Origin: a phage
DNA length: 64,000 bases
Sequence record: PZ476263.1
Strand: one strand, 5' to 3'
Part shown: one piece after another, positions 8,170 through 48,293 of the stretch
Position numbering within the stretch: the first letter of the stretch is position 1
How the letters are laid out: each line of letters opens with the position of its first letter
Notes under the pieces: generated by a model
Told to the model about the DNA's origin: nothing
What the model saw: the letters and a program-made list of their open reading frames with translations, nothing else
Database searches by the model: none
Made by a program: the position numbers and the translations under genes

Positions 8170-11100
8170 GTGTCGTCTAATACCGATATTTTAGCTTTGC
8201 TTAATACGGAAGCGGATCAAGCTGTGGACCAAATCATTGAAGACTCTAGAAGACTTCACTTGGTGGTCAATGGTACAGGAACAGAACAAGTAGTTACTGA
8301 AGATGGTAGCCTGATTCCTACAATCCGTAAAGCAATTATTGATAATTTTTATTTCAAAACTCCACCTTTACCTTGGAGAAATGGAGGATCGGTTGTTGAG
8401 TTTAACCAACTGTATGCTTTCACCGATCTGAATGGGAATGTATCTTGGTGGTATGCTCCTGGTGCGACGAGTGCTTCTCCTGTTGTGATGAGAGATAGCC
8501 CAATCAATGATGGTAAGTTTAGACCATTCTTTGATAAAGGTAATATTCAAGACACTTACGCTCCGCTTCTTTCTCCGGCTTTCCGTGGAAACCCTACAGT
8601 ACCACTCCCTCCTGAGGGAGATTCTTCCTTTACCATTGCACCAACTGCATGGGTATCTCGCGAAATTGAAAAGGTCCGTGGTGAAATAGTTGAAGAATCT
8701 CGCGGTGAATTTCAAAACATTATTGTAAGGGACGATGCATCTCTTAAAGACCTCTACGTAAGTGGGGAAGCGATCTTTACAAGTGAGAGAATTGCTGCAT
8801 TGGATTCCGAGCTGTCGCTTAAGCGCTTAAGAATGGCAGGTCCACAAGCGGAGATGGCTTTTGAGCAAAATGGATCCTCCCCTGCTGCGGGACTTACCAA
8901 AAAGACAAATATAAAGCCTTATGAAATAACCACTGGCAGGTTCATTTCCAATACTGTGCAGGCTGACGAGATTAAAGTTGGTGATACCTCTCGTTCAGTA
9001 AACAGTTTGGATGTTGAAGGTTACATGCAGGCTGATTATTTACATCTGGAAGGTAATGCCAATAACGATGCGGAAAGACCTCAGTTAATTGTTGACGGCA
9101 TCGCAGAGATTAAAACTCTTCGCGTTATAGATACAATTGAAGGGTTGAAAGCTGACGTTGAAGGTCTAGATATTAACCCCAATAGTGTCGTAGTTGAAAG
9201 AACTTCAAGGGTAAAAGGTGCAGCAACTTTTGATTCTACCGTAAATGTATCCGGCACAACGACTTTAAATAATGTGGTTATTGAAGGTACGCTAACGGGC
9301 GCAGGGATCGGTGTTGACGGAAAAGATATTGCTCCTCGTTCAGTAAATGCGACTTCTGTAACTGTTGCACAAAATCTTAACGTAACTGGTGAGACTTTTG
9401 CAGCTGGGGATATGACTGTAAATAACCTTAGGGTTAACGGTGCACTCATCGCAGATATCGATATTGAGGGAAGTGATCTTAACTTCACCAACATTAACGT
9501 CTCAGAAAAAGCCACAATAAAAGACCTTGAAGTGACAGGAACTGTAACCGGATTTACTGTAAGTGTTGACGGAGAGGATATTTCTCCTGCAACGGTAACA
9601 ACCTCCGGCAATGTAACTGTTGGAAATAACCTTCGTGTCTCTGGCGATCTTACTGTAGATGGTGAACTGGCAATACCTGCCTTAGATACAGGAGAGATCA
9701 CTGCGGGAGATATTTCAGGTAATTCTTTAACCCTCGACGGCGATCTTACCACAGGTCCAGAGTCTACCACTCGTCTTCATAATCTCGTTGTCACAGGAAC
9801 GACCACAGGCCTCACTGTAACAGCGAATGTAGATGGACAAGACATTCTCCCATCCAGTGTCGCTACAGGCAATCTGGATGCATCTGGAGAGGTTTCAGCG
9901 GCATCTCTGTCGGTTACTGGGGCAACGCAAGTAAAAGACCTGAATATTACAGGGACTGTTACCGGATTACAGATCGATCTTTCTGACGAGGCGGTATCTG
10001 TTGATTCAATAACGGCAAGAAGAACTTCCAACTTCGCAGATATTAGTACGACAAATATCACAAATGCTGAAAAGATTACAACTCAGGATTTACAAATCCT
10101 CGGTGATCTTACAGATGCTGACGGTAACCCATTCTATGCCAATGTGACTGGTCAAGACATCTTACCTAACAGTGTTCAATCTGCAACATCTGTCCGAACT
10201 AAAACTTTACGTGTTGAAGAAACATCTCTTCTTGAAGGAACAGTTACTTTAAATAACGGATTGATTGTTACTGACGGGGACATAACTTCAACGCAAGGTA
10301 TTGCAAAGTTTAACGATGTTCAGATATTTGGTTCTTTAACAGATGCGAATGGTAATGGTATTGGCACTGTTGAAAGTATCCAAGGAAGAGATATTGCCCC
10401 TCGAAGTGTTGTGGCTCAAGTTGATGTTCAGGCCGCAGCCTTAGAAATAACAGGGCAGGCACATGTAGGTTCTTTGATTGTTGATGGAGAAACTACAACG
10501 AGCAGCATAAACATTTCAGGTATTGCAACTGCTAATGAAGTTATTGTTGACACGGTAAGGTCTGGTCAGATAACTTCAGGAAACGTAGTAATAACAAGAA
10601 CTGTAGGCTCTTCTGATCCGGCACTTGAAGTACGTGGCCCAGGGCAGATTCAAGGCGATCTCAGTGTTACTGGAACAATCTCTGGAAACATTGACCTGTC
10701 TGCCAAAGATATCAGTGTAAACTCTTTAACCTCAGCAGGAGCTATAACCGGAATATCTGTTTCTTCCAGCACTTCTGTAACTGGATTGTCTGCTACTTTT
10801 GGTGAAGATTACCCTGAAGCACCTGCCTACGGGATTACATCTTTATCTGGTGCAAACATTAATAAAAACCTTCGTGTTGGTGGTAATTTAACTGTTGTTG
10901 GGAACATCTCTGGAAACATTGATCTTAGTGGGAAGACTATCTCTCCGCAAGAGGTTGATGCAACCACGATTGGAGCTACAAATGCCAATCTGACCAACCT
11001 TACAGTTACCGGAAACCTGACTTTACCTTCAGTACCTTTGACTTCTCAAAGTCTTACGGCGGAGGGTCTTGTTAGTGCAGCTAAGTTTAGCACAACTCCA

Positions 11101-22752: not shown

Positions 22753-23651
22753 TTAGTGACAATCTCCCCAGCTGTATCCACACAAGTATTCCCCTGTGAT
22801 ATGCACTGGTGATTTCATCATCTTAGCTGCTTGTTCGACACAACGAACAACCATCTCTCCTACAGGGCAGTATGTAATAGTGAAGATACCATTTTCATCT
22901 GGATCACACTTAAACTTACCTTCCTTGACACAATGGCCTTCGAGGACCATCTTCTTAGCAAGACATGCCTCAACAAAAGCTTTTGCATCAGCTTCGTTAT
23001 CAAACTTCCATACCTTTTTGAACTTCTCCGGCACTTCAAGCTGGTACTCGTCATGGTAATAAATTGTACGACGTACACCTTGATCATACCAACCTTTTTT
23101 AACCAGCTGCCAATGCAACAGGATACCTACCAAGTCAAACATGGCAGCACCACCGTTCTGTTGGAAAGCGTTAAGCAATGAGTGTTTGGATCGGGTATAG
23201 ATCTTACGACCATCAAGACCATAAATGAATCGTTTACCGTTGGCTTCCCAAAACTTCTCAAGTGCTTCTTTACGACCTTTCAAACCTAAGTTGCTATCCC
23301 AAAATGCATCGATTACTGCTTGTGCTTTCTCCAATGAAATTCCAAGCATGGATGCAATCTTAGCTGCTTGAGCACCGTACATAATTCCATAGGTGATCCC
23401 CTTTCCTTCCCCACGAGATACTTTCTTACCCGCTGCCTTGGTATATGCTTCTGCGTTTCGACTATGAGCATCACCACTTTCCATAATTCGGAGGTAAGCA
23501 CCACCATCGAATTCATAACTTCCCCATGCAGCGACCATACCCTCTAAGTTAGAACCGTCTATACCTACCTGATACTTACCCTCGGGTACAGTGAAAAGGT
23601 CACGCATTTCTTTACCTAGAAGAACCTTAGGATCAGGCTTCGGCACGTTAG
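22753..23651 (-). CDS. DNA polymerase, family A (T7 gp5-like), 3' exon: palm/fingers from motif A to C-terminus
   Basis: GIDGSNLEGMV (motif A region), KGITYGIMYGA, GLDGRKIYTRSKHSLLNAFQQNGGA, YHDEYQLEV (motif C), C-terminus ...SWGDCH; parallels the T7 DNA polymerase C-terminal half as recalled; 5' boundary approximate. Confidence 0.85.
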
Positions 23652-24875
23652 CACAATATGTTCGTTAAAGGTCGCAACTCTTTAACCGGGATCGTATACA
23701 CCTGAAGAAATATCTCTTCACACTTTCGAGTACGATTCCTGTTTCTTTTGCTACGTCACAGAAATCTTTCCCATCAAGTATCATTTTTGTTATCTCTAGT
23801 TCCAACTCTTCTTTAGTTTTGTTTCTTAACTTACTGACCCCAAAAGTTTTATCTTCGGCAAATTTACCGATAAAAAATCTAACTGTCGGTTTCTCTAAGT
23901 TTAGGATCTCACAAATCTTTAAAAGAGTCGCACCTTTCCACCATAAAGATCTTGCTTCTTCTGCAAGATGTTTCTTTTCTTCCACTTCAGAAACACATTT
24001 CCCCATGTCGAAAGTTTTTAAGTATCTTGCTGCAAAGTGCCTTTCTTGTCCAAGGTCCAGAGAGATTTTTGCATACGAATCACCTGCCAGATATCTTTTA
24101 TGGATGTGCAGATACATCTCTCCATAGTTATCAAAGCCGGATTGTTTTGCTCTATTATCTCTTTTTGCCATTGAACTTCTTTCAGATGCGATAGTTTTTA
24201 TGGACTCACCAAAAGAGTTTCCAATTGCATCTGGACTAGGACTCACCGCTGAAAAAGTATTATTAGTCATGTTATAGAATTCTGTATTGTTGGCTGCATC
24301 ATTCTCTAAAAGAACTTTTTCTTCGATTTCACGAAGGAGATCTCTTTTGTCTACAACTTCCAACACCTCAGCTACAAATCTATGACCACTTTTTAAATCC
24401 TTTTTCATATCTGGATTGGAAGAGGACCCAAGATAAGGTTTTCCACTCTTAATCGAGATTATTGTGGGGATTCCATCCACATCTATCACTTTGCATTCAC
24501 TTTTACTTCCGATATATTTGTTCGGGTATTCTTCTTTATCGATGTTTTTCAAGAGATAAACAATGTTCATGTATACGTCCTCCGCTGTATCTTTCAACAC
24601 AGTTCAGACTATATCTTTGACACACTAAAGGATAGCTGAACCAATCTACCCCTAATGTATCACAAACCACTTCGATTGTCTACGCTTACAATCTACGCCT
24701 TCCGGCTAGTCGTTGAACCTTCTACCTGTCTGGTAGCTTGGCTGCTGATTGCCCAATCCTTTAACTTTTTAAACCTTCGCTTTGTATTCCTACTCGCAGT
24801 GGTATAAAGGCTCTAAGGGGTTCCCAGCAATTCAATTTGTTTTATACTGAGGCAGCTTTAGTTTACCACAGTGTG
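23652..24875 (-). mobile_element. group I intron interrupting the DNA polymerase gene, carrying a GIY-YIG homing endonuclease ORF
   Basis: All four conserved core elements on - strand RNA: P AAUUGCUGGGAAC (rc of 24820-24832), Q AAUCAGCAGCC (rc of 24740-24750), R GUUCAACGACUAGCC (rc of 24704-24718), S AAGAUAUAGUCUGAAC (rc of 24602-24617); polymerase reading frame resumes after the inserted ORF; exact splice sites not resolved. Confidence 0.75.
23665..24600 (-). CDS. GIY-YIG family homing endonuclease (intron-encoded)
   Basis: 311 aa; N-terminal MNIVYLLKNI...NKYIGSKSE matches the GIY...YIG module; Lys-rich C-terminal half; RBS GGAGGA; located inside the intron downstream of core element S. Confidence 0.75.
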   Translation of the reverse strand: MLKDTAEDVYMNIVYLLKNIDKEEYPNKYIGSKSECKVIDVDGIPTIISIKSGKPYLGSSSNPDMKKDLKSGHRFVAEVLEVVDKRDLLREIEEKVLLENDAANNTEFYNMTNNTFSAVSPSPDAIGNSFGESIKTIASERSSMAKRDNRAKQSGFDNYGEMYLHIHKRYLAGDSYAKISLDLGQERHFAARYLKTFDMGKCVSEVEEKKHLAEEARSLWWKGATLLKICEILNLEKPTVRFFIGKFAEDKTFGVSKLRNKTKEELELEITKMILDGKDFCDVAKETGIVLESVKRYFFRCIRSRLKSCDL

Positions 24876-26594
24876 TTTACGACGGCCTGTATTCGTTATT
24901 CCAGTATAACGTGCAGGTAATTTACCGTCCACCGCAAGTCGAGGATGGTTTAACCAACCTGTATCTACTTTATCCTCTTTCAAAGGATCAAGAACACTTC
25001 GACGGTTACGAAGAGATAGCCATTTTACAATCTGCTTTGCCATATCACCATCGACTCGCTCAAGGTTAGGACAAAGGCCCTGCTGATCCTTAAGCTGCGG
25101 TGATGTTGGTAATGCTCTTGCCTTCTTCCTGAAGAACTTATACATCTTCTCTTTATCTTGCCACTGCTTACCACTGATACCTAAACTTTTCAGAATCAGA
25201 TCGCGATATTCAGTCTGGTCAAGATCATCAATGTATTGACGAACAATGATATCGACTTCGTTATCGGGACGTTGTTTCTTAAACTGGTCCTTCGTCGCAT
25301 CTTTGGTTCGCCACAATGTTGGGACCCAACCCGCATCACGAATAAGGAATTTTTTAACGTCATCCTGATTACCAATACGCATCGGAATCATAATATCCGG
25401 CATCTTTTGATCTTTGATATCCATCAATGCACGGGCCATGTCTTCCGGTGGCAAAGGTACAAGATTTTCCTTTTTCACATTTTGAGAACGAATAAATTCA
25501 GCCATTTTGGATTCATCTTCTACACCATGCTCTACACAATACTTAATTGCAGCAGATGTGAGTGAACCATCGCCCTTAAACGGCTTACTTGGAGCGCCTT
25601 TAAATTCAAGAGCTTCCCAATTCACATTGTAACCTAACTTCTCTAACCATTTCCAGCCCGTACCAGAAAGAGATCCATCTCCTTTAAACGGCTTAGACGG
25701 GAAAGTAGGCTGTGCTGACTTGGACATCTCTTTCTTCGGCAGCTTTGGTTCAACCTCTTCTTCAATTTCTTTCATCATCGTATCAATACGATCACGCAAA
25801 GCTAAACCTTTCTCCACGTCGAAAGTAACACCCTGAATTTCTTGCTCAACCATCAAATAGTCGGTAAGCATACCTCGACGCAAGGCATTCTTCCAATTGA
25901 TGAGCTTCATCTTCTTCGGATCTTTGTCCGATTCATCTTTGTACATGAAACGTTTATCATCCGGCATAGAGTCACATGAAATTTCTTTCATGAGGGCATC
26001 CCATACCATTTCGTTGATGATTACGTCTTCAATAATACGATCACAATATTTCCACAAAGGGAGTCCACGCCAATCTTCGATTGCTACCTTCTGGTTTGCT
26101 ACTCGCATACCCCAAGCTTCAAGTCCATGAGGGCCTACAGGCTTCATTTTACCTGTAACTGGGTTCTTTACCATCTCGGGACAACCGCGCGGCAGAGGGC
26201 GATCTGGATACAGTGTACGGGACATTGAAAGGGTATCGAAGATGTTAACTTGTTTACCATTGATAGTCCCCATGCAACCAGGGTCTGCAAACATATCGTA
26301 TGTTGTTCCAAACATCTTTTTAAACAGCTGTAAGTCATAGCCGAAGATATTATGGATAGCAACAGCTTTTGGTTCAGTCACAAACCACTCATTAAGTTCT
26401 TCCAACTTACGGATCTTAAAGTTCTTACCTTTGGATTGAATAAACTTAACCGCTTGCTCGTAGCCTTCGCGGTTCGGATCGATAAAAATATTCCAATTGT
26501 CCTTTTTGTACTCTTTAAAAAGAACACAGTGAACAAGATCAACTTCTGTCAACAGGCCGTTAGCCTCTGCATCTCCAATAAACAAACCTTTCAT
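24858..26594 (-). CDS. DNA polymerase, family A (T7 gp5-like), 5' exon: 3'-5' exonuclease domain plus N-terminal part of polymerase domain
   Basis: FIGDAEANGL (Exo I), GPHGLEAWGMRV and GWVPT match T7 gp5 landmarks as recalled; ends ...TGRRKHTVVN just before the conserved PNL(Q)xIP region; last codons and stop probably intron-encoded. Confidence 0.85.
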   Translation of the reverse strand: MKGLFIGDAEANGLLTEVDLVHCVLFKEYKKDNWNIFIDPNREGYEQAVKFIQSKGKNFKIRKLEELNEWFVTEPKAVAIHNIFGYDLQLFKKMFGTTYDMFADPGCMGTINGKQVNIFDTLSMSRTLYPDRPLPRGCPEMVKNPVTGKMKPVGPHGLEAWGMRVANQKVAIEDWRGLPLWKYCDRIIEDVIINEMVWDALMKEISCDSMPDDKRFMYKDESDKDPKKMKLINWKNALRRGMLTDYLMVEQEIQGVTFDVEKGLALRDRIDTMMKEIEEEVEPKLPKKEMSKSAQPTFPSKPFKGDGSLSGTGWKWLEKLGYNVNWEALEFKGAPSKPFKGDGSLTSAAIKYCVEHGVEDESKMAEFIRSQNVKKENLVPLPPEDMARALMDIKDQKMPDIMIPMRIGNQDDVKKFLIRDAGWVPTLWRTKDATKDQFKKQRPDNEVDIIVRQYIDDLDQTEYRDLILKSLGISGKQWQDKEKMYKFFRKKARALPTSPQLKDQQGLCPNLERVDGDMAKQIVKWLSLRNRRSVLDPLKEDKVDTGWLNHPRLAVDGKLPARYTGITNTGRRKHTVVN

Positions 26595-26912: not shown

Positions 26913-27352
26913 CGTTCAATCTCCTTCTTTTTGGACATAGTGATGAAATAGTTCTGACCTTTCTTGCACTGGTTAAACCAGCCAACAAGATATCCATCTT
27001 CGATACGAATATCATACTCAGGGTATTCGCCCGTTCCACTGATTATATGGAAAAGTTTACCGAAGTCAATAAAGGTCAGATTATACTGAAAGTTTTCCTC
27101 GTCCTGGAAGATTGCAACAGCAGAGCTTCGGCCCTTTGACGTAGTAATAAACTTAAGTTTAAGTTCACGATGCTCATGATCGACAATGTTAACTTTTCTC
27201 TCAAGCAAGTAATTTGGGTCAACACGGGGCCAATGAGCTTTAAATCTTTCAGCGCCTTCTTCAGTAAAGGCATCACCATCGTAACCAGTAAACCATTTAC
27301 CATTATCTTTTACGTAGCCATGATAACTACGCTTACCTTTTACTTTAATCAT
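26909..27352 (-). CDS. hypothetical protein
   Basis: 147-aa ORF. Confidence 0.5.
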   Translation of the reverse strand: MIKVKGKRSYHGYVKDNGKWFTGYDGDAFTEEGAERFKAHWPRVDPNYLLERKVNIVDHEHRELKLKFITTSKGRSSAVAIFQDEENFQYNLTFIDFGKLFHIISGTGEYPEYDIRIEDGYLVGWFNQCKKGQNYFITMSKKKEIER

Positions 27353-27552
27353 TCCGTTATCTCCTCTTGTTCTGGATCTTCGATCATTGAGCTTTTAACT
27401 CTTGACCCGTATGTGGTCATTTCACCCGACCTACTCGAACCCTCAGGTGCTCTTATGACAGCATGACCTCTTAATAGTGTTCCTTCGTAGGTTTGTCCAA
27501 CTACAAAACCCATTTGGGAAACACCATTATCTCTATAACAAAGTAAATTCAT
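27349..27552 (-). CDS. small paralogue array member 11 (divergent)
   Basis: 67 aa; GQTYEG...IEDPEQEE; shares family scaffold. Confidence 0.55.
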   Translation of the reverse strand: MNLLCYRDNGVSQMGFVVGQTYEGTLLRGHAVIRAPEGSSRSGEMTTYGSRVKSSMIEDPEQEEITE

Positions 27553-27763
27553 CGTTCTCTATTTTAATTTCCTCTGTGATTTTATTTTCGGGATCAAGAA
27601 TAAGGCATGACTTTTTACACGGCACGGAATAAAACAACCCCCGCTCGTTTGGACAGATAATTAAAATATTTCGACCTCCCATATCTTTACCCTCGTAAGA
27701 CTCTCCTACCATTACCCCTTTGTCCCTCAGGAAACTATCCTCTTTTATGTAGATATACCTCAT
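27533..27763 (-). CDS. small paralogue array member 10
   Basis: 76 aa; MRYIYIKED...VGESYEG...ILDPE. Confidence 0.6.
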   Translation of the reverse strand: MRYIYIKEDSFLRDKGVMVGESYEGKDMGGRNILIICPNERGLFYSVPCKKSCLILDPENKITEEIKIENDEFTLL

Positions 27764-27960
27764 AGGCTGTTTTCCTCAGGGTCAAGAATAAAATGTTTAT
27801 CTTCGCAAAATCCCCAGTTATTTTCTCGTCCTAATGGATAGATACAGAGAATATTTTTCTTTATACTTGCATATTTCCCTTCATAAGTACAGCCTATTTC
27901 TACATGTTTCCAAGTAGGAACACTTAAGCATATGTATTTTTTAAATGTTTCTTCATTCAT
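27760..27960 (-). CDS. small paralogue array member 9
   Basis: About 66 aa from internal Met (track ORF to 27984); KKYICLS...IGCTYEG...LCIYPLG...ILDPEE. Confidence 0.6.
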   Translation of the reverse strand: MNEETFKKYICLSVPTWKHVEIGCTYEGKYASIKKNILCIYPLGRENNWGFCEDKHFILDPEENSL

Positions 27961-28156
27961 TTTGGTCCTCCCCCTCAGGGTCAATAACGAAGTGTATAGA
28001 ATTTAAATATCTTATCCCACCATCCAACCCTGTCGGGTAGATACAAAGATAGTGAAGCATTACGCTATCTTCACATCCATAATAAGTCGATCCTAAAGAA
28101 ACTTGACTGCTTGCTTTATCTGATAAGCAGATGTACTTTTTTAAATCCTGTTTCAT
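27953..28156 (-). CDS. small paralogue array member 8
   Basis: 67 aa; KKYICLSD...GSTYYG...LCIYPTG...VIDPEGE. Confidence 0.6.
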   Translation of the reverse strand: MKQDLKKYICLSDKASSQVSLGSTYYGCEDSVMLHYLCIYPTGLDGGIRYLNSIHFVIDPEGEDQNE

Positions 28157-28359
28157 TCATTAACCTCCTCAGGGTCGAGAATGAAATCATTAAAATCGCA
28201 AATTATCCAATCAGCAGACCAAGGGTGATGACCATCAGGGAAAATATATAGAACACCAGGTATCATTCCCCCTATAAAACCTGTATATGTCTCGCCTATT
28301 TTGACAAGATCCTCGTTACTTTTTATACAGAGGAACTTTTTAGTGTTTTTATCTCTCAT
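28153..28359 (-). CDS. small paralogue array member 7
   Basis: 68 aa; KKFLCIKS...IGETYTG...LYIFPDG...ILDPEE. Confidence 0.6.
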   Translation of the reverse strand: MRDKNTKKFLCIKSNEDLVKIGETYTGFIGGMIPGVLYIFPDGHHPWSADWIICDFNDFILDPEEVNE

Positions 28360-28565
28360 TTTTTAATATCCTCTGGTTCCTTTGCAAAACTCTTAGTGCC
28401 TATATATACCCATCCACTACCTATTCCATGAGGATATATACAAAGTGCATCCGACATTGTACTGTCGAATCCTGAATAAGTCTCCCCCAAATTAAGATTT
28501 GAGCATCCTTTGGTGCTTATGCATATGTAATTTTGAATATACATTTCAGGTTTTTGTTTCATTTT
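28356..28565 (-). CDS. small paralogue array member 6
   Basis: About 69 aa from internal Met (track ORF to 28622); NYICIS...LGETYSG...LCIYPHG. Confidence 0.55.
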   Translation of the reverse strand, partial: KMKQKPEMYIQNYICISTKGCSNLNLGETYSGFDSTMSDALCIYPHGIGSGWVYIGTKSFAKEPEDIKK

Positions 28566-28566
28566 A

Positions 28567-28764
28567 TTACTCCTCGTGCTCGGGGTCAAGAACGAAGTCC
28601 GCAGAATGATAGTACACACCATAAGTTTCTATCCCTTTCGGAAAAATATGAAGATAGTTGCTCATTAAAATATCTTTACGACCATAATAGGTCAATCCTT
28701 GAGAGATTGCTGTACCTGCCTCATCAGATATGCAAAGATACTTTTTAAATCCTATTTCACTCAT
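28567..28764 (-). CDS. small paralogue array member 5
   Basis: 65 aa; KKYLCISD...GLTYYG...LHIFPKG...VLDPEHEE. Confidence 0.6.
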   Translation of the reverse strand: MSEIGFKKYLCISDEAGTAISQGLTYYGRKDILMSNYLHIFPKGIETYGVYYHSADFVLDPEHEE

Positions 28765-28953
28765 TTAATCTCCTTCCGGATCAGCCGCTAAGCAAGATCC
28801 CTTACAAGGTGCTGACCTGAGCCAACCCTCATCGTTTAAATAGTAAATGATAATAACAGCATCTCCTATACCCTCAGTGCCTTCGTAAGATTCTCCTATT
28901 ATCAACGGGTAGTCTTCCAAAAGGCGATCTTCTTTTATGTAGATATATTTCAT
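28765..28953 (-). CDS. small paralogue array member 4
   Basis: 62 aa; MKYIYIKED...IGESYEG...AADPEGD. Confidence 0.6.
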   Translation of the reverse strand: MKYIYIKEDRLLEDYPLIIGESYEGTEGIGDAVIIIYYLNDEGWLRSAPCKGSCLAADPEGD

Positions 28954-29145
28954 TTATTCATCGCCTTCGGGATCTTCGACAAAATTATCTAACTTTACAG
29001 GCATAGATAAATTATCAGTCACCTTCACTGTGATGTAAATACTTTGAAAAGATTTAAATTTATTCTCTTCCCGATAAGTCTCGCCAACTACCAAGAGTTT
29101 AGAGTCCTTATTTTGTATGCATAGATAATTTGTCATTGTTTTCAC
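28954..29145 (-). CDS. small paralogue array member 3
   Basis: 63 aa; NYLCIQN...VGETYRE...VEDPEGDE. Confidence 0.6.
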   Translation of the reverse strand: MKTMTNYLCIQNKDSKLLVVGETYREENKFKSFQSIYITVKVTDNLSMPVKLDNFVEDPEGDE

Positions 29146-29345
29146 CTGTATTCAGGGTCTTCCGTGAAACTCTCCTTATTGAAAAATAGAGTAGTATCTT
29201 CATTTGGGAACGTTATAGGTATGTACTTACCCCGAGGAATACTATCGTTTATAAAGTAAGTCATACCTAATTGAAGTTTAGTGCTGTGTATGTTACTTAT
29301 ACATATAACCCCGACAAATCTTTCACCCTTCCTCTCCTTCTTCAT
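29142..29345 (-). CDS. small paralogue array member 2
   Basis: 67 aa; VGVICISN...LGMTYF...TEDPEYR. Confidence 0.55.
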   Translation of the reverse strand: MKKERKGERFVGVICISNIHSTKLQLGMTYFINDSIPRGKYIPITFPNEDTTLFFNKESFTEDPEYR

Positions 29346-29532
29346 ATATTTCAGGATCCTCTACAAAATCAGATTTCTTAAGCCATAGTTCCAAAGTATC
29401 ACTTACCCTTACGGATATCTGCCCACCAAATATTTTAGATGGTCTTACATAGTAAGTTTCTCCGATTACAAGTTTGTAAGTAGACCTATTGCTAACGCAG
29501 AGAAACTTAACATATTTTTGCTGTATACTCAT
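29323..29532 (-). CDS. small paralogue array member 1
   Basis: 69 aa; KFLCVSN...IGETYY...VEDPEIYEE. Confidence 0.55.
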   Translation of the reverse strand: MSIQQKYVKFLCVSNRSTYKLVIGETYYVRPSKIFGGQISVRVSDTLELWLKKSDFVEDPEIYEEGEEG

Positions 29533-29863: not shown

Positions 29864-30544
29864 TTAGTGATTGAATTTAAAAACTGCCCGTGCAAAACCT
29901 TCTGGTGTTAGTGATCGCAATTGTTTTGTCCGATCAGACTTTCCACCTAAATACCGCCATCCCCAAAAACATCCAATATGTTCAACAGGTTTCTTTTCAG
30001 GCATTATAAACCCATTTCCTGACCAAAGGCAAGTCTTTTTAGTGTAGGCATTCTGTAAAGGCATCTGAGGATGATAAGAACCTTCGTGTGGTTCCAGATA
30101 ACCCCCATACTCATACGGATCAAAGTAATGGTCAGGTTTTCGCCATAGGGTACTCATCTTTCCTACAGGATTCTCCACAAACCAAGGACAATTAAATGTA
30201 TTCGCAATCCGCTCTACCATTTTTGCATTGATGATTGACTCCATCAACTGATCATTAGTCCTCTCATGTTTTGCACCCGCTACCGTTAAGTTTGTGCAAG
30301 AAGGGAAAGAGAAGATGATATCTGGCTTTGGGATACCCGCTTTGGCTGCAAAGGCTTCAAAATTATCATCAATCCAACAATTCACATACTCAATATTTGG
30401 ATGCTCTTTACGCATCTTGTACTGACCGTGATCCGCCGTATCGGCATTGAAGCAATAAACTTTCCAACCTGCCTTTGCATACTCATAGCCCATAAAGCCA
30501 CTACCGTCAAAAAGCGACCAAACCACTTTAAAAATATTAATCAT
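29864..30544 (-). CDS. putative DNA (cytosine-5)-methyltransferase-like protein (short)
   Basis: 226 aa; motif I-like LFDGSGFMG, motif IV-like FSFPSCTNL (PC dipeptide), motif VI-like FVENPVG (ENV); too short for a canonical enzyme with target-recognition domain. Confidence 0.5.
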   Translation of the reverse strand: MINIFKVVWSLFDGSGFMGYEYAKAGWKVYCFNADTADHGQYKMRKEHPNIEYVNCWIDDNFEAFAAKAGIPKPDIIFSFPSCTNLTVAGAKHERTNDQLMESIINAKMVERIANTFNCPWFVENPVGKMSTLWRKPDHYFDPYEYGGYLEPHEGSYHPQMPLQNAYTKKTCLWSGNGFIMPEKKPVEHIGCFWGWRYLGGKSDRTKQLRSLTPEGFARAVFKFNH

Positions 30545-30545
30545 A

Positions 30546-30875
30546 TTATCCTCGGATTGAAAGTTTCGCCAAATAAAATATAACCAGGTACAAGCCGTAT
30601 GCTAACGCAACCGAACTCAGTATTGTAATTGTGACAGGCAAGGCCCATAAAAGAACGATAATCATCATCGTTAAACCGAATGCTCCACCAAAACACTCTA
30701 AAAAAGCTTCACTTCCGAACTTAATGGGGTCCAAAGATTTCTTTATCTTGTCCCTTAGGAAAAGAAAAGACATAATAACAAATATTGCGATCCCCAGCAA
30801 GACCCATTGGGTAACAGAGGTGTTTTGTCGGATAAAATGATACCATGCATCATAAATTACTGTCAAGTTTTCCAT
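30546..30875 (-). CDS. membrane protein
   Basis: 109 aa, three hydrophobic segments. Confidence 0.5.
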   Translation of the reverse strand: MENLTVIYDAWYHFIRQNTSVTQWVLLGIAIFVIMSFLFLRDKIKKSLDPIKFGSEAFLECFGGAFGLTMMIIVLLWALPVTITILSSVALAYGLYLVIFYLAKLSIRG

Positions 30876-31240
30876 TAGGTCCTCACTGATAGTTTAACAA
30901 GGATTTCAATAATTTTTACAAGTACAAAGATTAAGACTGCAAAAATAGACACAAAAATAATCAAAGGTAAAAGGTATATTGTCCCTGTGATCAATGCTGA
31001 AATAAGTAAGGAAAAGAAAATCTCCGGTACACCATCCCAACACCACAGTTGCTTACTCTTTTTGTATTGATACCTTAAAATACCAAATAAAGATACAATT
31101 GAAAAAGATATGAAAATGATAAATGGTGTTTCCTTCGAGATCAAGAAACTTATTACATCATTAAACCAAAATATTACGACTCTCTGTGCGAATTCAATCA
31201 TTTCTTTTTCCTCTCTTTCTTCTCTGGTTTTACATCGCAA
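30875..31240 (-). CDS. membrane protein
   Basis: 121 aa, several hydrophobic segments; ATGA overlap with downstream gene. Confidence 0.5.
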   Translation of the reverse strand: MRCKTREEREEKEMIEFAQRVVIFWFNDVISFLISKETPFIIFISFSIVSLFGILRYQYKKSKQLWCWDGVPEIFFSLLISALITGTIYLLPLIIFVSIFAVLIFVLVKIIEILVKLSVRT

Positions 31241-32570: not shown

Positions 32571-34613
32571 TCAGAAAGGTGCTTCCTCGTCGAAATCCAC
32601 ATCTTCAACTTCCGGTACGTCTGGAATGTTTGCTGCCGCTTCGACAATATCTTGTTGCTCCCAAATCTCTTCCATAGGTTGTCCAAGTTCTTCCATTACT
32701 TCCTTCATCTCTTGCTTCTGAGCTTCAAGGAAGTTTTCATCCGGATCTGGAATGTCCTCTTCTGTGATATCCGAACGGGTAAGGTCCGAATTACTTTCCG
32801 ACAGAGGCTGGATTTCAGCTGCCTTTGGCTTAAAGTCTGGAGAACGATGATCATCTTCTGGATGTGCTGCATACCATTCCCGAAGAGTCTCATATGGACT
32901 GTCCAAAAAGCCTTCTGGCGGCTCAAGGTAATCACCCGTGTCAATGTCATAGAACACAGGGAATTTACCAGCACGACCGTGTTTACGGTCATCCAGAATA
33001 ACAAACCATGAAGTATTTCGTTGCTTCATAGGTAGTTCTGGATCTTTGTTACGCTCAATACCCCACATGTAATACGTGTTACGCATCATTGCACGACTAC
33101 CAGCAAACTGAGCTGATTGAACTTGACCACCAAACTCGTGTGGCTTACCTGCATCTGGCTTATTGAGGTGGCAGAAGCAATAATAAGTAAAACCAAGTTC
33201 TTTAGCCAGCTTGGAGATCTCATCAGAGAACCGCTCAAGTTCCTGGTTAGCCTCTGACGCACTCATACCCTGAACAAGTCGAGTGATCGGGTCAATAAAG
33301 ATATCTTCACACCCTTCTACGATTACAGCATGGCGGATAGCACCTTTCAGTTCATCCCATACTGCACGACCATAGTTGTTATAGTAAATTACACTATCAC
33401 CAACTTCATCTGTCGCCTTGATCAGCTCTTCCTGCTTAAAGTATCCACGTTGACCTTCAAAAACTTCATTGCCCCAAATGTCACGGTAAGTCCCGTCAGG
33501 TTGCGGAAGCATTACTTTTTCTGCGTTAACGAAGTCTTTATGATATCGCTTACCTGCAATCTTCTTACAGGTGATTTCGTTCTCTTCTTCAAACTTAAAT
33601 ACCGCTGCTTTTGCTTTCTCTACGCCAGTGATATGTTCAACCAGCTGGTTAAGCAATTCACTCTTACCCATTTTTACACCCGCACCAATGAAGTAACCTT
33701 CACCGAGGCGACGGCCCAAAGTAAGTTTTGTCAGTGTAGGCCAAGGGAATTTTTTACCCAGCTTAGGGATTTCATGAGCCTTTTCACGGAATTGTGAATA
33801 AGTTGAAAAACCGTCCGGTACATATTCCTTTGGTTTCATTGCTGCCCAAAACAACTGATCAGCAAGACCTTTGTTATACATGTCACAAGGGTCCATATCT
33901 TCAGGGATATCGACCACCTTCATTTGAGGAATAACAGAGTAAACTGCGGCAACCGCATCTTTACCCTTCATAATTCCTTTTGCTTTTTCTGCTTCAGTTG
34001 CCCGATCCGCATCGAAAGCTACAATAATCTCATCAAACTTACTTAACAGCTTATAGTTGTTCTTTTGTGACAAGTTCTGAACAGCGTTAGAAGTTCCGTT
34101 AGAGATGGAAACAACTGTGAAGTTCGGTTTACGTGTCGCACCATCTTTGGGTTTATACTTTTCACGAAGAACTTGCCAAAGAACGGCAGCATCGTATTCA
34201 CCCTCAGTGATAAAGATCATTCGTTTGGAGGATTTATTAGCACCTTCAAGACCAAACAGATCACAAGCTACCGATTGAAAACCGATAGTTGTAAAATGAC
34301 CTTTCTGCTGTTTTGGGATTGTAAGATCACGCTTCTTAAAACCTACAATCTTCCCATCCAAAGTATACGGAAAGTAATGTGCTTCTGCCGAAAGACCGTC
34401 TTTTGCGGAAAGCTTAGTACGAATACCAAAACGCTCTGCTGTCTTTTCATCGATACCACGCTCAGGGATTGCTTTGAACGGATAAGTCATTACATCTGCA
34501 ACTGTTTCTTCTACTCGCGAAGAACTGCTACCAAAACTACGTTGAACACTGGCCTTTGGATTCTTATGCCCAAATTTGTAACCGCCAAACAAACTTTCTC
34601 CGATGGTACTCAT
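32571..34613 (-). CDS. DNA primase-helicase (T7 gp4-like)
   Basis: 680 aa; TOPRIM-like motifs IFITEGEYDAAV and IIVAFDAD; Walker A GAGVKMGKSEL; acidic C-terminus ending ...DVDFDEEAPF; no N-terminal Cys zinc ribbon visible. Confidence 0.85.
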   Translation of the reverse strand: MSTIGESLFGGYKFGHKNPKASVQRSFGSSSSRVEETVADVMTYPFKAIPERGIDEKTAERFGIRTKLSAKDGLSAEAHYFPYTLDGKIVGFKKRDLTIPKQQKGHFTTIGFQSVACDLFGLEGANKSSKRMIFITEGEYDAAVLWQVLREKYKPKDGATRKPNFTVVSISNGTSNAVQNLSQKNNYKLLSKFDEIIVAFDADRATEAEKAKGIMKGKDAVAAVYSVIPQMKVVDIPEDMDPCDMYNKGLADQLFWAAMKPKEYVPDGFSTYSQFREKAHEIPKLGKKFPWPTLTKLTLGRRLGEGYFIGAGVKMGKSELLNQLVEHITGVEKAKAAVFKFEEENEITCKKIAGKRYHKDFVNAEKVMLPQPDGTYRDIWGNEVFEGQRGYFKQEELIKATDEVGDSVIYYNNYGRAVWDELKGAIRHAVIVEGCEDIFIDPITRLVQGMSASEANQELERFSDEISKLAKELGFTYYCFCHLNKPDAGKPHEFGGQVQSAQFAGSRAMMRNTYYMWGIERNKDPELPMKQRNTSWFVILDDRKHGRAGKFPVFYDIDTGDYLEPPEGFLDSPYETLREWYAAHPEDDHRSPDFKPKAAEIQPLSESNSDLTRSDITEEDIPDPDENFLEAQKQEMKEVMEELGQPMEEIWEQQDIVEAAANIPDVPEVEDVDFDEEAPF

Positions 34614-47523: not shown

Positions 47524-47790
47524 GAGTTAAAGGAAAAGATATGAATGTTAATGATTTATATAGTAAACTATCCAAAAGGTTCTTTACTTTCTATGGATTG
47601 ATGTTGATTGGTTTAGTTATGTTCTTAGTTGGATCTGTAGGTAAGTTGATCTTAAAATTGTTGGAGGTAATATGATCACAGTTACAAACATGAAGTGGTG
47701 GGCATTAGCTCAAGTGGCTAATGATCAAGATGGTGGTGATGGTAAACGTGCAGTGGCACAGATCTATGTGTATGGTAAAGGAGGTAACTG

Positions 47791-48162
47791 ATGTTGGAAT
47801 TTATTAATAATCTTGATTGGTATTTAGTAGCTTTAGTGGTTGTATACCTTATTTGTGTACCTTTGGTGTTATTCAACTTTGTGGACCTACTGGCCCTAGA
47901 TGATAAATCTGAAACTGCCACTTTTGGTGATCATCTAATGGCGATAGTTTGTGTATTGTCTGCACCCTTGGCACTGCTGTGCTTCTATTTTGTGGCCTTT
48001 GCTTTCTATTTCCCAAAAAGCAAATATGGGAAAAAGTACATTGCATGGAAGATTGAACGAAAACTACGTCGTAAGAAGATTATTAGTCCACTTGATTGGG
48101 CAGTGACCAAACGCCGCATTAGCCGAAAGGAGAAGAGAGATGAAACAGATAACCAAGTTTAA
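47791..48162 (+). CDS. membrane protein
   Basis: 123 aa, two hydrophobic helices, basic C-terminus; preceded by two tiny ORFs (47541-47675, 47672-47791). Confidence 0.5.
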   Translation: MLEFINNLDWYLVALVVVYLICVPLVLFNFVDLLALDDKSETATFGDHLMAIVCVLSAPLALLCFYFVAFAFYFPKSKYGKKYIAWKIERKLRRKKIISPLDWAVTKRRISRKEKRDETDNQV

Positions 48163-48293
48163 GTGGAAGTTTTGGGAGTACACTCTGATCATTGCTGGTT
48201 GGTTATTTGGCTATGGTCATGAAGTGTATTACAATGTGAAACATAAGAGAAATATGGCTTACATTCGTCATGTCTTCCACAAAAGAGGTTAAG

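Follow-up and report, generated by a model that had tools for sequence, protein, structure and literature searches.

We analysed a stretch of phage DNA of 64,000 nucleotides (sequence record PZ476263.1; hereafter the window) and focused on a 226-codon open reading frame (ORF) on its minus strand, positions 29864–30544, which begins with ATG and ends with TAA. This gene very probably encodes an active, self-sufficient ('orphan') DNA methyltransferase for C5 of cytosine (C5-MTase) that depends on S-adenosylmethionine (AdoMet) and belongs to the short family phrog_757. Membership of the family, the fold, the conservation of the catalytic residues and the spacing of the motifs are established in this analysis. 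The activity, target site, timing and role of the window protein are inferred.

The window gene belongs to a widespread family of short phage methylases

The window protein matched phrog_757, annotated as 'DNA methyltransferase', with E=3.4e-82, its residues 6–225 aligning with profile positions 15–218 of 247. Two other methyltransferase PHROGs gave weak matches to its N-terminal part. Using tblastn, homologs were found in 1,504 phage records, in 1,440 of them at a query coverage of at least 80%. Among their sources are the Vequintavirinae with their relatives, Drexlerviridae such as Webervirus and Warwickvirus, and phages that infect Campylobacter, Vibrio or Arthrobacter. Some are labelled 'hypothetical protein' and others, at the opposite end, 'Dcm-like C5 cytosine methyltransferase'. 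The best match was CR9_073 of Cronobacter phage CR9, a 'putative site-specific DNA methylase' with 85% identity. A collection of 5.8 billion proteins held 795 homologs, several of them named 'DNA cytosine methyltransferase' by NCBI; the best was 85% identical, and five relatives in the clade of the window protein were 79–85% identical to it. With homologs this numerous in the phage and protein collections, the window ORF did not arise by chance.

When cluster representatives (50% identity) were searched exhaustively with HMMER, 983 clusters matched at E<=0.001; almost all of their full-length members are 200–260 amino acids (aa) long. As this is the family norm, the window protein is short but not truncated. 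With 226 aa it fits the family pattern, which is a single-domain protein of about 200–260 aa whose gene is an orphan of a phage or prophage: no endonuclease is annotated beside the methylase gene in the window, in CR9, in Escherichia phage A73, in Pantoea phage AAS23 or in Klebsiella phage KP36. When ten longer relatives were scanned for domain fusions, one HNH fusion and no informative extra domain were seen. By sequence comparison, the window gene is a further member, 85% identical to the nearest annotated one, of a widespread and partly characterised phage family. The kind of enzyme is essentially already known, and the family is already annotated.

The window protein is predicted to have the fold of a C5-MTase catalytic domain

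As a canonical reference we used eight C5-MTases of 303–387 aa, namely the catalytic region of E. coli K-12 Dcm (387 residues only) and seven phage enzymes. The family was represented by 57 diverse members, down to 30% identity. Profile–profile comparison of the two sets with hhalign gave E=5.1e-5 and a probability of 67%, with residues 6–136 aligned and motifs I, IV and VI in register and in order. Alignment to the single sequence of E. coli Dcm found the right register at E=0.098 and is superseded by the eight-sequence profile. For AAS23 gp52, another family member, HHpred has been reported to match a C5-MTase structure with 99.7% probability (PMC8004638).

An AlphaFold2 model of the window protein (mean predicted local distance difference test score (pLDDT) 78.5; predicted template modelling (TM) score 0.82) has the alternating strand–helix order of a Rossmann-type methyltransferase, with a low-confidence loop directly after motif IV. 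When the model was compared with the PDB using Foldseek, the catalytic domains of DNMT3A and DNMT3B came first (E~1e-7). In a viral structure library, the best matches were phage proteins of about 225 aa from the short methylase family, with a TM score of 0.85 to an unnamed protein and of 0.72 to one named 'site-specific DNA-cytosine methylase'; canonical viral C5-MTases came next. As modelled, the window protein has the fold of a C5-MTase catalytic domain. Despite being the top fold match, the DNMT3A and DNMT3B catalytic domains share only 12–19% sequence identity with it. Moreover, the DNMT3 enzymes keep motif X and have a catalytic domain of about 285 aa, regulatory domains and obligate oligomer interfaces.

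Catalytic motifs are conserved and most of the target-recognition domain is absent

An earlier note, made from the sequence alone and giving no strand, had picked out LFDGSGFMG, FSFPSC and FVENPVG as motif-like strings, in canonical order, of a C5-MTase-like protein. All three are present in that order in the product of the minus-strand gene, at residues 11–19, 78–83 and 122–128 (Table 1). Across the 57 family members, motif I has the consensus L-[FY]-D-x-[TS]-G. Canonical enzymes (PF00145; M.HhaI, M.HaeIII, E. coli Dcm) have P-C-Q within motif IV (F-P-C-Q), whereas the family has F-P-x-C-T, where x is Ser in the window protein. This position, residue 82, is Pro in 37 members, Val in 7, Glu in 6, Asp in 5 and Ser in 2. 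The loop after motif IV falls below a pLDDT of 50 at residues 89–92, and by analogy with M.HhaI, residues 86–96 may form a mobile catalytic loop like the one that follows motif IV in that enzyme. In motif VI, Glu124 is found in 57/57 members, Asn125 in 53/57 and Pro126 in 56/57.

Ten positions are invariant in the 57 members and all ten are intact in the window protein: C83, G90, E124, P143, Y167, K169, T171, W174, P182 and R210. Conserved in almost all members are, among others, F80, P81, T84, N125, P126, S211, T213, P214, G216 and A220. The first two spacings between motifs lie within the canonical range, at 41 residues from C83 to E124 (39–48 in canonical enzymes) and 45 from E124 to K169, that is, from motif VI to the motif VIII-like strand (43–52). 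No sequence alignment between the family and canonical enzymes was obtained for motif VIII (QxRxR). An invariant family strand, Y-x-K-[KR]-T-x-x-W, is found at the place expected for it; the window protein reads Y-x-K-K-T there, with K169 at the presumed position of the canonical basic residues. At the C-terminus, a profile of the C-terminal fragment found its best local match in canonical motif IX. This match is weak (E=0.018 over 11 columns) and pairs tk.iRS.TPrG of the family with riRkLTPrE of the canonical enzymes.

The same note had observed that the protein is about 100 aa shorter than typical enzymes of this class and had found neither the later motifs nor a variable region evident. Both observations hold. 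With 226 aa against 303–387, the window protein loses its length in two places: the gap between motifs VIII and IX (K169 to R210) is 41 residues, compared with a variable region of 97–174 in the eight canonical enzymes, leaving no large target-recognition domain, and the tail after P214 is 12 residues, compared with 48–69. From the measured spacings, the 80–100 or so absent residues correspond to the bulk of the target-recognition domain together with the segment of motif X, much as the note had suspected. The note had taken this shortness as a peculiarity of the protein, and it turns out to be the norm of a known family. Within the C-terminal third, the sole internally variable stretch lies at about residues 186–198, where the family consensus is undefined. 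On this pattern of variation, residues 175–205 are a candidate DNA-sequence reader, and those at about 186–198 a candidate specificity element.

Table 1. Positions in the window of the methylase gene, its ribosome-binding site and the segments of its product
Feature	Position	Strand	Basis
Coding sequence, 226 aa, short phage C5-cytosine DNA methyltransferase (phrog_757 family)	29864..30544	minus	ORF list; phrog_757 match
GAGGA, Shine-Dalgarno / ribosome-binding site	30549..30553	minus	4 nt 5' of the methylase ATG
Motif I, LFDGSGFMG, residues 11–19, AdoMet-binding loop after strand beta1	30488..30514	minus	hhalign against canonical LFAGIGG
Motif IV, FSFPSCTN, residues 78–85, predicted catalytic Cys83	30290..30313	minus	C83 aligned with the canonical PC cysteine
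Predicted flexible catalytic loop, residues 86–96	30257..30289	minus	Lowest-confidence segment of the model, followed by helix 97–116
Motif VI, FVENPVG, residues 122–128	30161..30181	minus	Aligned with canonical ENV
Motif VIII-like strand, YTKKTCLW, residues 167–174	30023..30046	minus	Y167, K169, T171 and W174 invariant; model strand 171–176
Candidate minimal variable region ('mini-TRD'), residues 175–205	29930..30022	minus	Gap between motifs VIII and IX; undefined family consensus
Motif IX-like segment, TKQLRSLTPEGFARAV, residues 206–221, and C-terminal helix	29882..29929	minus	R210 invariant

Characterised relatives methylate DNA or come from phages with EcoRII-resistant DNA

The best characterised relative comes from Drexlerviridae phage K42 (KarlJaspers-like). 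In a study of retron Ec86, four of four K42 escape mutants had disruptions of a 711-bp 'dcm' gene (bioRxiv 10.1101/2023.08.16.553469; later published as Wang et al., Cell Rep 2024 43:114857). When K42 Dcm was expressed alone from a plasmid, liquid chromatography–mass spectrometry detected high 5-methylcytosine (5mC) on the multicopy single-stranded DNA (msDNA) of the retron, and Ec86 was triggered (bioRxiv 10.1101/2023.08.16.553469). 5mC was only low with a C82A/E128A/K175A/K176A quadruple mutant or with the empty vector, in a host, MG1655, that has its own Dcm; mutating the CCTGG site of the msDNA abolished Ec86 defence (bioRxiv 10.1101/2023.08.16.553469).

A 236-aa protein of the Warwickvirus MikeNSara, 49% identical to the window protein over its full length, carries C, E, K and K exactly at positions 82, 128, 175 and 176 of the K42 numbering. 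These residues map to C83, E124, K169 and K170 of the window protein. K42 Dcm resembles the window protein in family, in size class and in being an orphan gene in a replication region. It differs in having F-P-P-C in motif IV and Arg at position 215, where the window protein has F-P-S-C and Glu215. In addition, the variable stretch of about 20 residues before LGGKS is wholly different, reading LILPKEEDKDNPGWAKT in the K42 type and PVEHIGCFWGWRY in the window protein, so the specificity need not be the same.

Two further relatives come from phages whose DNA has been digested with EcoRII. AAS23 gp52, annotated as a DNA cytosine methyltransferase, shares 49% identity with the window protein; the virion DNA of AAS23 is resistant to EcoRII (PMC8004638). 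KP36 gp74 (47552–48244, annotated as a DNA methyltransferase) is 56% identical and shares with the window protein both F-P-S-C and the segment FW.W.(Y/F)LGG; KP36 DNA has 155 EcoRII sites and was not cut (PMC3620542). The authors of the 2013 KP36 study saw no cytosine methyltransferase gene and credited the resistance to the Dcm of the host (PMC3620542). Since gp74 is a member of the present family, that attribution deserves re-examination. The phages that carry KP36 gp74, AAS23 gp52 and CR9_073 differ from the window phage in family and host.

The earlier note had left three interpretations side by side. That of a minimal DNA modification enzyme is upheld by the family annotation, the C5-MTase fold and relatives 49–56% identical with experimental 5mC support. 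A protein that needs a partner appears unlikely, and repurposing for nucleotide or RNA modification finds no support, for reasons given with each alternative below.

Points against an active, self-sufficient enzyme, and alternative readings

A number of observations weigh against the assignment proposed here, and they concern detection, active-site residues and the target site. The HMM search against the DNA_methylase family that the earlier note had suggested came back empty: scanned against Pfam, PF00145 included, and against NCBIfam, the window protein had no match at E<=10. PF00145 was touched by one of the 57 family members, weakly (E=0.007). Searches against PDB sequences were not significant either, whether made with the single protein, with 28-member or 57-member profiles or with a C-terminal-fragment profile; DNMT2 and M.HaeIII appeared at E~0.7 with non-significant alignments over motifs I–IV. 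The Pfam negative is nevertheless misleading, because profile–profile and structural comparison recover the relationship to C5-MTases.

Changes at conserved positions are the second concern. Motif X (Q.GN[SA]V), which in canonical enzymes helps to form the cofactor pocket, has no sequence counterpart, and no GN[SA]V occurs in the window protein. The canonical Pro-Cys dipeptide of motif IV is replaced by Ser-Cys, and position 215, Arg in 46 of the 57 members, is Glu in four, the window clade among them. These substitutions could mean that the protein keeps the fold in a degenerate, inactive form, in which P82S and R215E abolish or strongly cut catalysis and the product is retained as a DNA-binding or regulatory factor. 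The rarity of Ser82 (2/57, compared with 37/57 for Pro) and of Glu215 (4/57, compared with 46/57 for Arg) speaks for such a loss, and in older mutagenesis of the EcoRII methylase, replacing the Pro of Pro-Cys reportedly lowered activity. Nevertheless, we consider inactivity very improbable. All ten family-invariant positions are intact, position 82 varies freely (P/V/E/D/S), which suggests that it is not critical, and the clade is well conserved, with relatives at 79–85%, as under purifying selection. KP36 gp74 also has F-P-S-C, and KP36 DNA is fully resistant to EcoRII.

The small size raises a different question, namely whether the window protein is the catalytic half of a split enzyme that needs a second protein, from the phage or the host, to recognise DNA or to be stimulated. 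There are precedents, since DNMT3A depends on DNMT3L and two-subunit C5-MTases are known. A recognition region of 41 residues, the absence of motif X and the oligomeric action of the closest solved folds, DNMT3A and DNMT3B, would all be in keeping with a partner. However, with the K42 relative expressed alone from a plasmid, 5mC on msDNA rose and Ec86 was triggered. The genes beside the methylase vary among the window, CR9, A73, MikeNSara, AAS23 and KP36, and in the window its immediate neighbours match either nothing or a PHROG without assigned function. We therefore give dependence on another protein only a slim chance. Homo-oligomerisation of the window protein is possible and would be compatible with a self-sufficient enzyme; the protein probably works alone or as a homo-oligomer.

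A third alternative changes the substrate or the transferred group: the enzyme might act on RNA or tRNA, as DNMT2 does, on free nucleotides, or transfer a carboxymethyl group from carboxy-S-adenosylmethionine (Cx-SAM), as CmoX does. CmoX is defined by an SPPC motif and by an Arg where motif X has Asn; in most cases its gene is linked to cmoA and to a gene for an amide ligase (PMC12783734). The window protein has F-P-S-C and no motif X. A CmoX-like activity would not require a phage cmoA, because E. coli makes and could supply Cx-SAM, and 5mC was the only modification monitored for the K42 relative. A scan of 20 proteins encoded in the window, a part of its ORFs, turned up neither a restriction enzyme nor a second methylase, and likewise no TET/JBP-like enzyme, cmoA or ligase. 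The Arg of 'ARAV' was tried as a sign of a CmoX-like protein and rejected, as position 219 is variable across the family (R/K/I/Q/L/E). Given that DNA C5-MTases outscore DNMT2 and that 5mC was detected on DNA for the K42 relative, a different substrate or group is very unlikely.

The remaining points against the assignment bear on the target site and on protection. For the K42 enzyme, CCWGG was taken as the site on the strength of its name, and the msDNA site mutants are the sole support (bioRxiv 10.1101/2023.08.16.553469); host Dcm is a possible source of the EcoRII resistance of AAS23 and KP36 DNA (PMC8004638, PMC3620542). In the BASEL collection, Vequintavirinae were very sensitive to restriction, and carrying methylase genes was not linked in any simple way to resistance (PMC8594841). 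Furthermore, CCWGG is not avoided in the window, where its 57 sites equal the expectation from composition, and in CR9, which carries the closest allele, no 5-mer is more depleted than CCWGG when the Markov measure is used.

This last observation belongs to a wider pattern of site statistics. The most depleted 5-mer of the window is CCSGG (CCCGG/CCGGG), with one site compared with 23 expected by a Markov model and 36 by composition. The sole site, at 23686, lies inside a putative homing-endonuclease ORF, consistent with recently acquired DNA. The E. coli phage MikeNSara has the same contrast as the window, with CCSGG depleted and CCWGG not avoided, CR9 reverses it, and KP36 shows neither pattern. 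We considered deriving the specificity of the methylase from such avoidance and rejected this, since the pattern tracks the host and not the methylase: CR9_073 is 85% identical and yet the pattern is opposite. Many 6-bp palindromes are likewise missing or scarce in the window (observed/expected: CTGCAG 0/11.9, GGTACC 0/7.2, CGATCG 0/8.2, GGGCCC 0/7.7, TCCGGA 2/14.6). These counts point to a window under strong restriction-site avoidance.

A proposed mechanism

For an active, self-sufficient enzyme, the chemistry can be proposed by analogy with the C5-MTase family. Cys83 of F-P-S-C would attack C6 of a flipped-out cytosine and Glu124 of E-N-P would protonate N3, while Lys169 and Lys170 would stand in for the canonical motif VIII arginines. 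AdoMet, held by the Rossmann half that comprises motifs I–III, would then deliver its methyl group to C5. Because the large target-recognition domain and motif X are absent, we assign the reading of the DNA sequence, as a proposal, to the stretch of some 40 residues that separates motif VIII from the motif IX-like RSLTP helix.

Judging by the position of the gene, expression during phage DNA replication is probable. In its likely role, the enzyme would place methyl groups on a short motif in phage (and host) DNA, which would block restriction enzymes that are sensitive to cytosine methylation. With relatives as a guide, CCWGG, the Dcm site, is the candidate target. This would come at a cost, as methylases of this type can trigger abortive infection by retron Ec86.

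A bolder version of the proposal is that the family represents a distinct minimal C5-MTase architecture, lacking the canonical target-recognition domain and motif X, which reads DNA with about 40 residues, possibly as a DNMT3A-like homo-oligomer, and that the site of the F-P-S-C/Glu215 subtype is perhaps not CCWGG or is very short. We put this forward tentatively, as possible but on balance doubtful.

The methylase locus in the window and in related phages

The methylase gene is part of a co-directional block of minus-strand genes at about 12.7–43.4 kb of the window. The same block carries a primase/helicase (32571–34613), a Dda-like helicase and DNA polymerase; among these replication genes, the methylase is placed between those for the primase/helicase and the DNA polymerase. 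The TAA of the gene upstream (30546–30548) sits between the GAGGA site and the methylase ATG. The ORFs that immediately flank the methylase have no functional PHROG match or no match of any kind. The window as a whole has a G+C content of 39.1% and no tRNA genes.

Judged by the primase/helicase (92% aa identity), the closest phages are the E. coli K-12 myoviruses A7_1, LTH01, A5-4, A73 and UPEC06, all of them unclassified members of the Vequintavirinae with sizes of about 142–145 kb. A megablast search with the methylase locus found no DNA-level match in the phage collection. At the syntenic position, A73 encodes A73_91 (9007–9711 of the compared stretch), a 'hypothetical protein' of the same family that is 45% identical to the window protein. 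CR9 has a G+C content of 50.6%, yet it holds the allele nearest to the window methylase (85%). Since the syntenic A73_91 is only 45% identical while the allele of the compositionally distant CR9 is 85% identical, the comparison implies that the methylase allele has been replaced by recombination at a conserved locus. The genes next to the methylase are not conserved across the window, CR9, A73, MikeNSara, AAS23 and KP36.

Some neighbouring features of the window deserve mention. Directly upstream of the methylase, at 30546–31240 (minus), are two small ORFs of 109 and 121 aa. Hydrophobic stretches are abundant in them by eye, and they may encode membrane proteins; for one, no PHROG matched, while the other gave a match to phrog_15955, of unknown function. 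Just downstream, beyond a 106-aa ORF, 11 small paralogous genes of 62–88 aa stand in tandem at 27349–29532 (minus). Their products are 19–31% identical and share the pattern KYICIS...G(E/S)TY.G...DPE. Farther along, an ORF of 578 aa (24858–26594, minus) matches positions 670–980 of the DNA polymerase family phrog_17, and one of 297 aa (22753–23646, minus) matches phrog_8888 and positions 986–1233 of phrog_17. Between them lies a 311-aa ORF (23665–24600) with a weak match to a homing endonuclease (phrog_7504, E=1e-5). In CR9 the polymerase is one undivided gene of 2,343 bp. This arrangement suggests that at 22753–26594 of the window a homing-endonuclease insertion splits the DNA polymerase gene.

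Significance

For annotation, phage–host biology and enzymology alike, the finding brings nothing new in kind. Its value for annotation is that a very common phage methylase family escapes both Pfam and NCBIfam, and many of its members, such as A73_91, are still recorded as 'hypothetical protein'. KP36 illustrates the consequence, in that a cytosine methylase gene was missed and its possible effect was credited to the host. For phage–host biology, family members can block cytosine-methylation-sensitive restriction and are also the known trigger of retron Ec86; the presence of the gene therefore predicts both counter-defence and vulnerability. For enzymology, a 226-aa enzyme that lacks motif X and the bulk of the recognition domain would offer a compact scaffold. 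If the bolder proposal is true, it would be the smallest self-sufficient DNA C5-methyltransferase scaffold, with a mode of recognition that is structurally undescribed.
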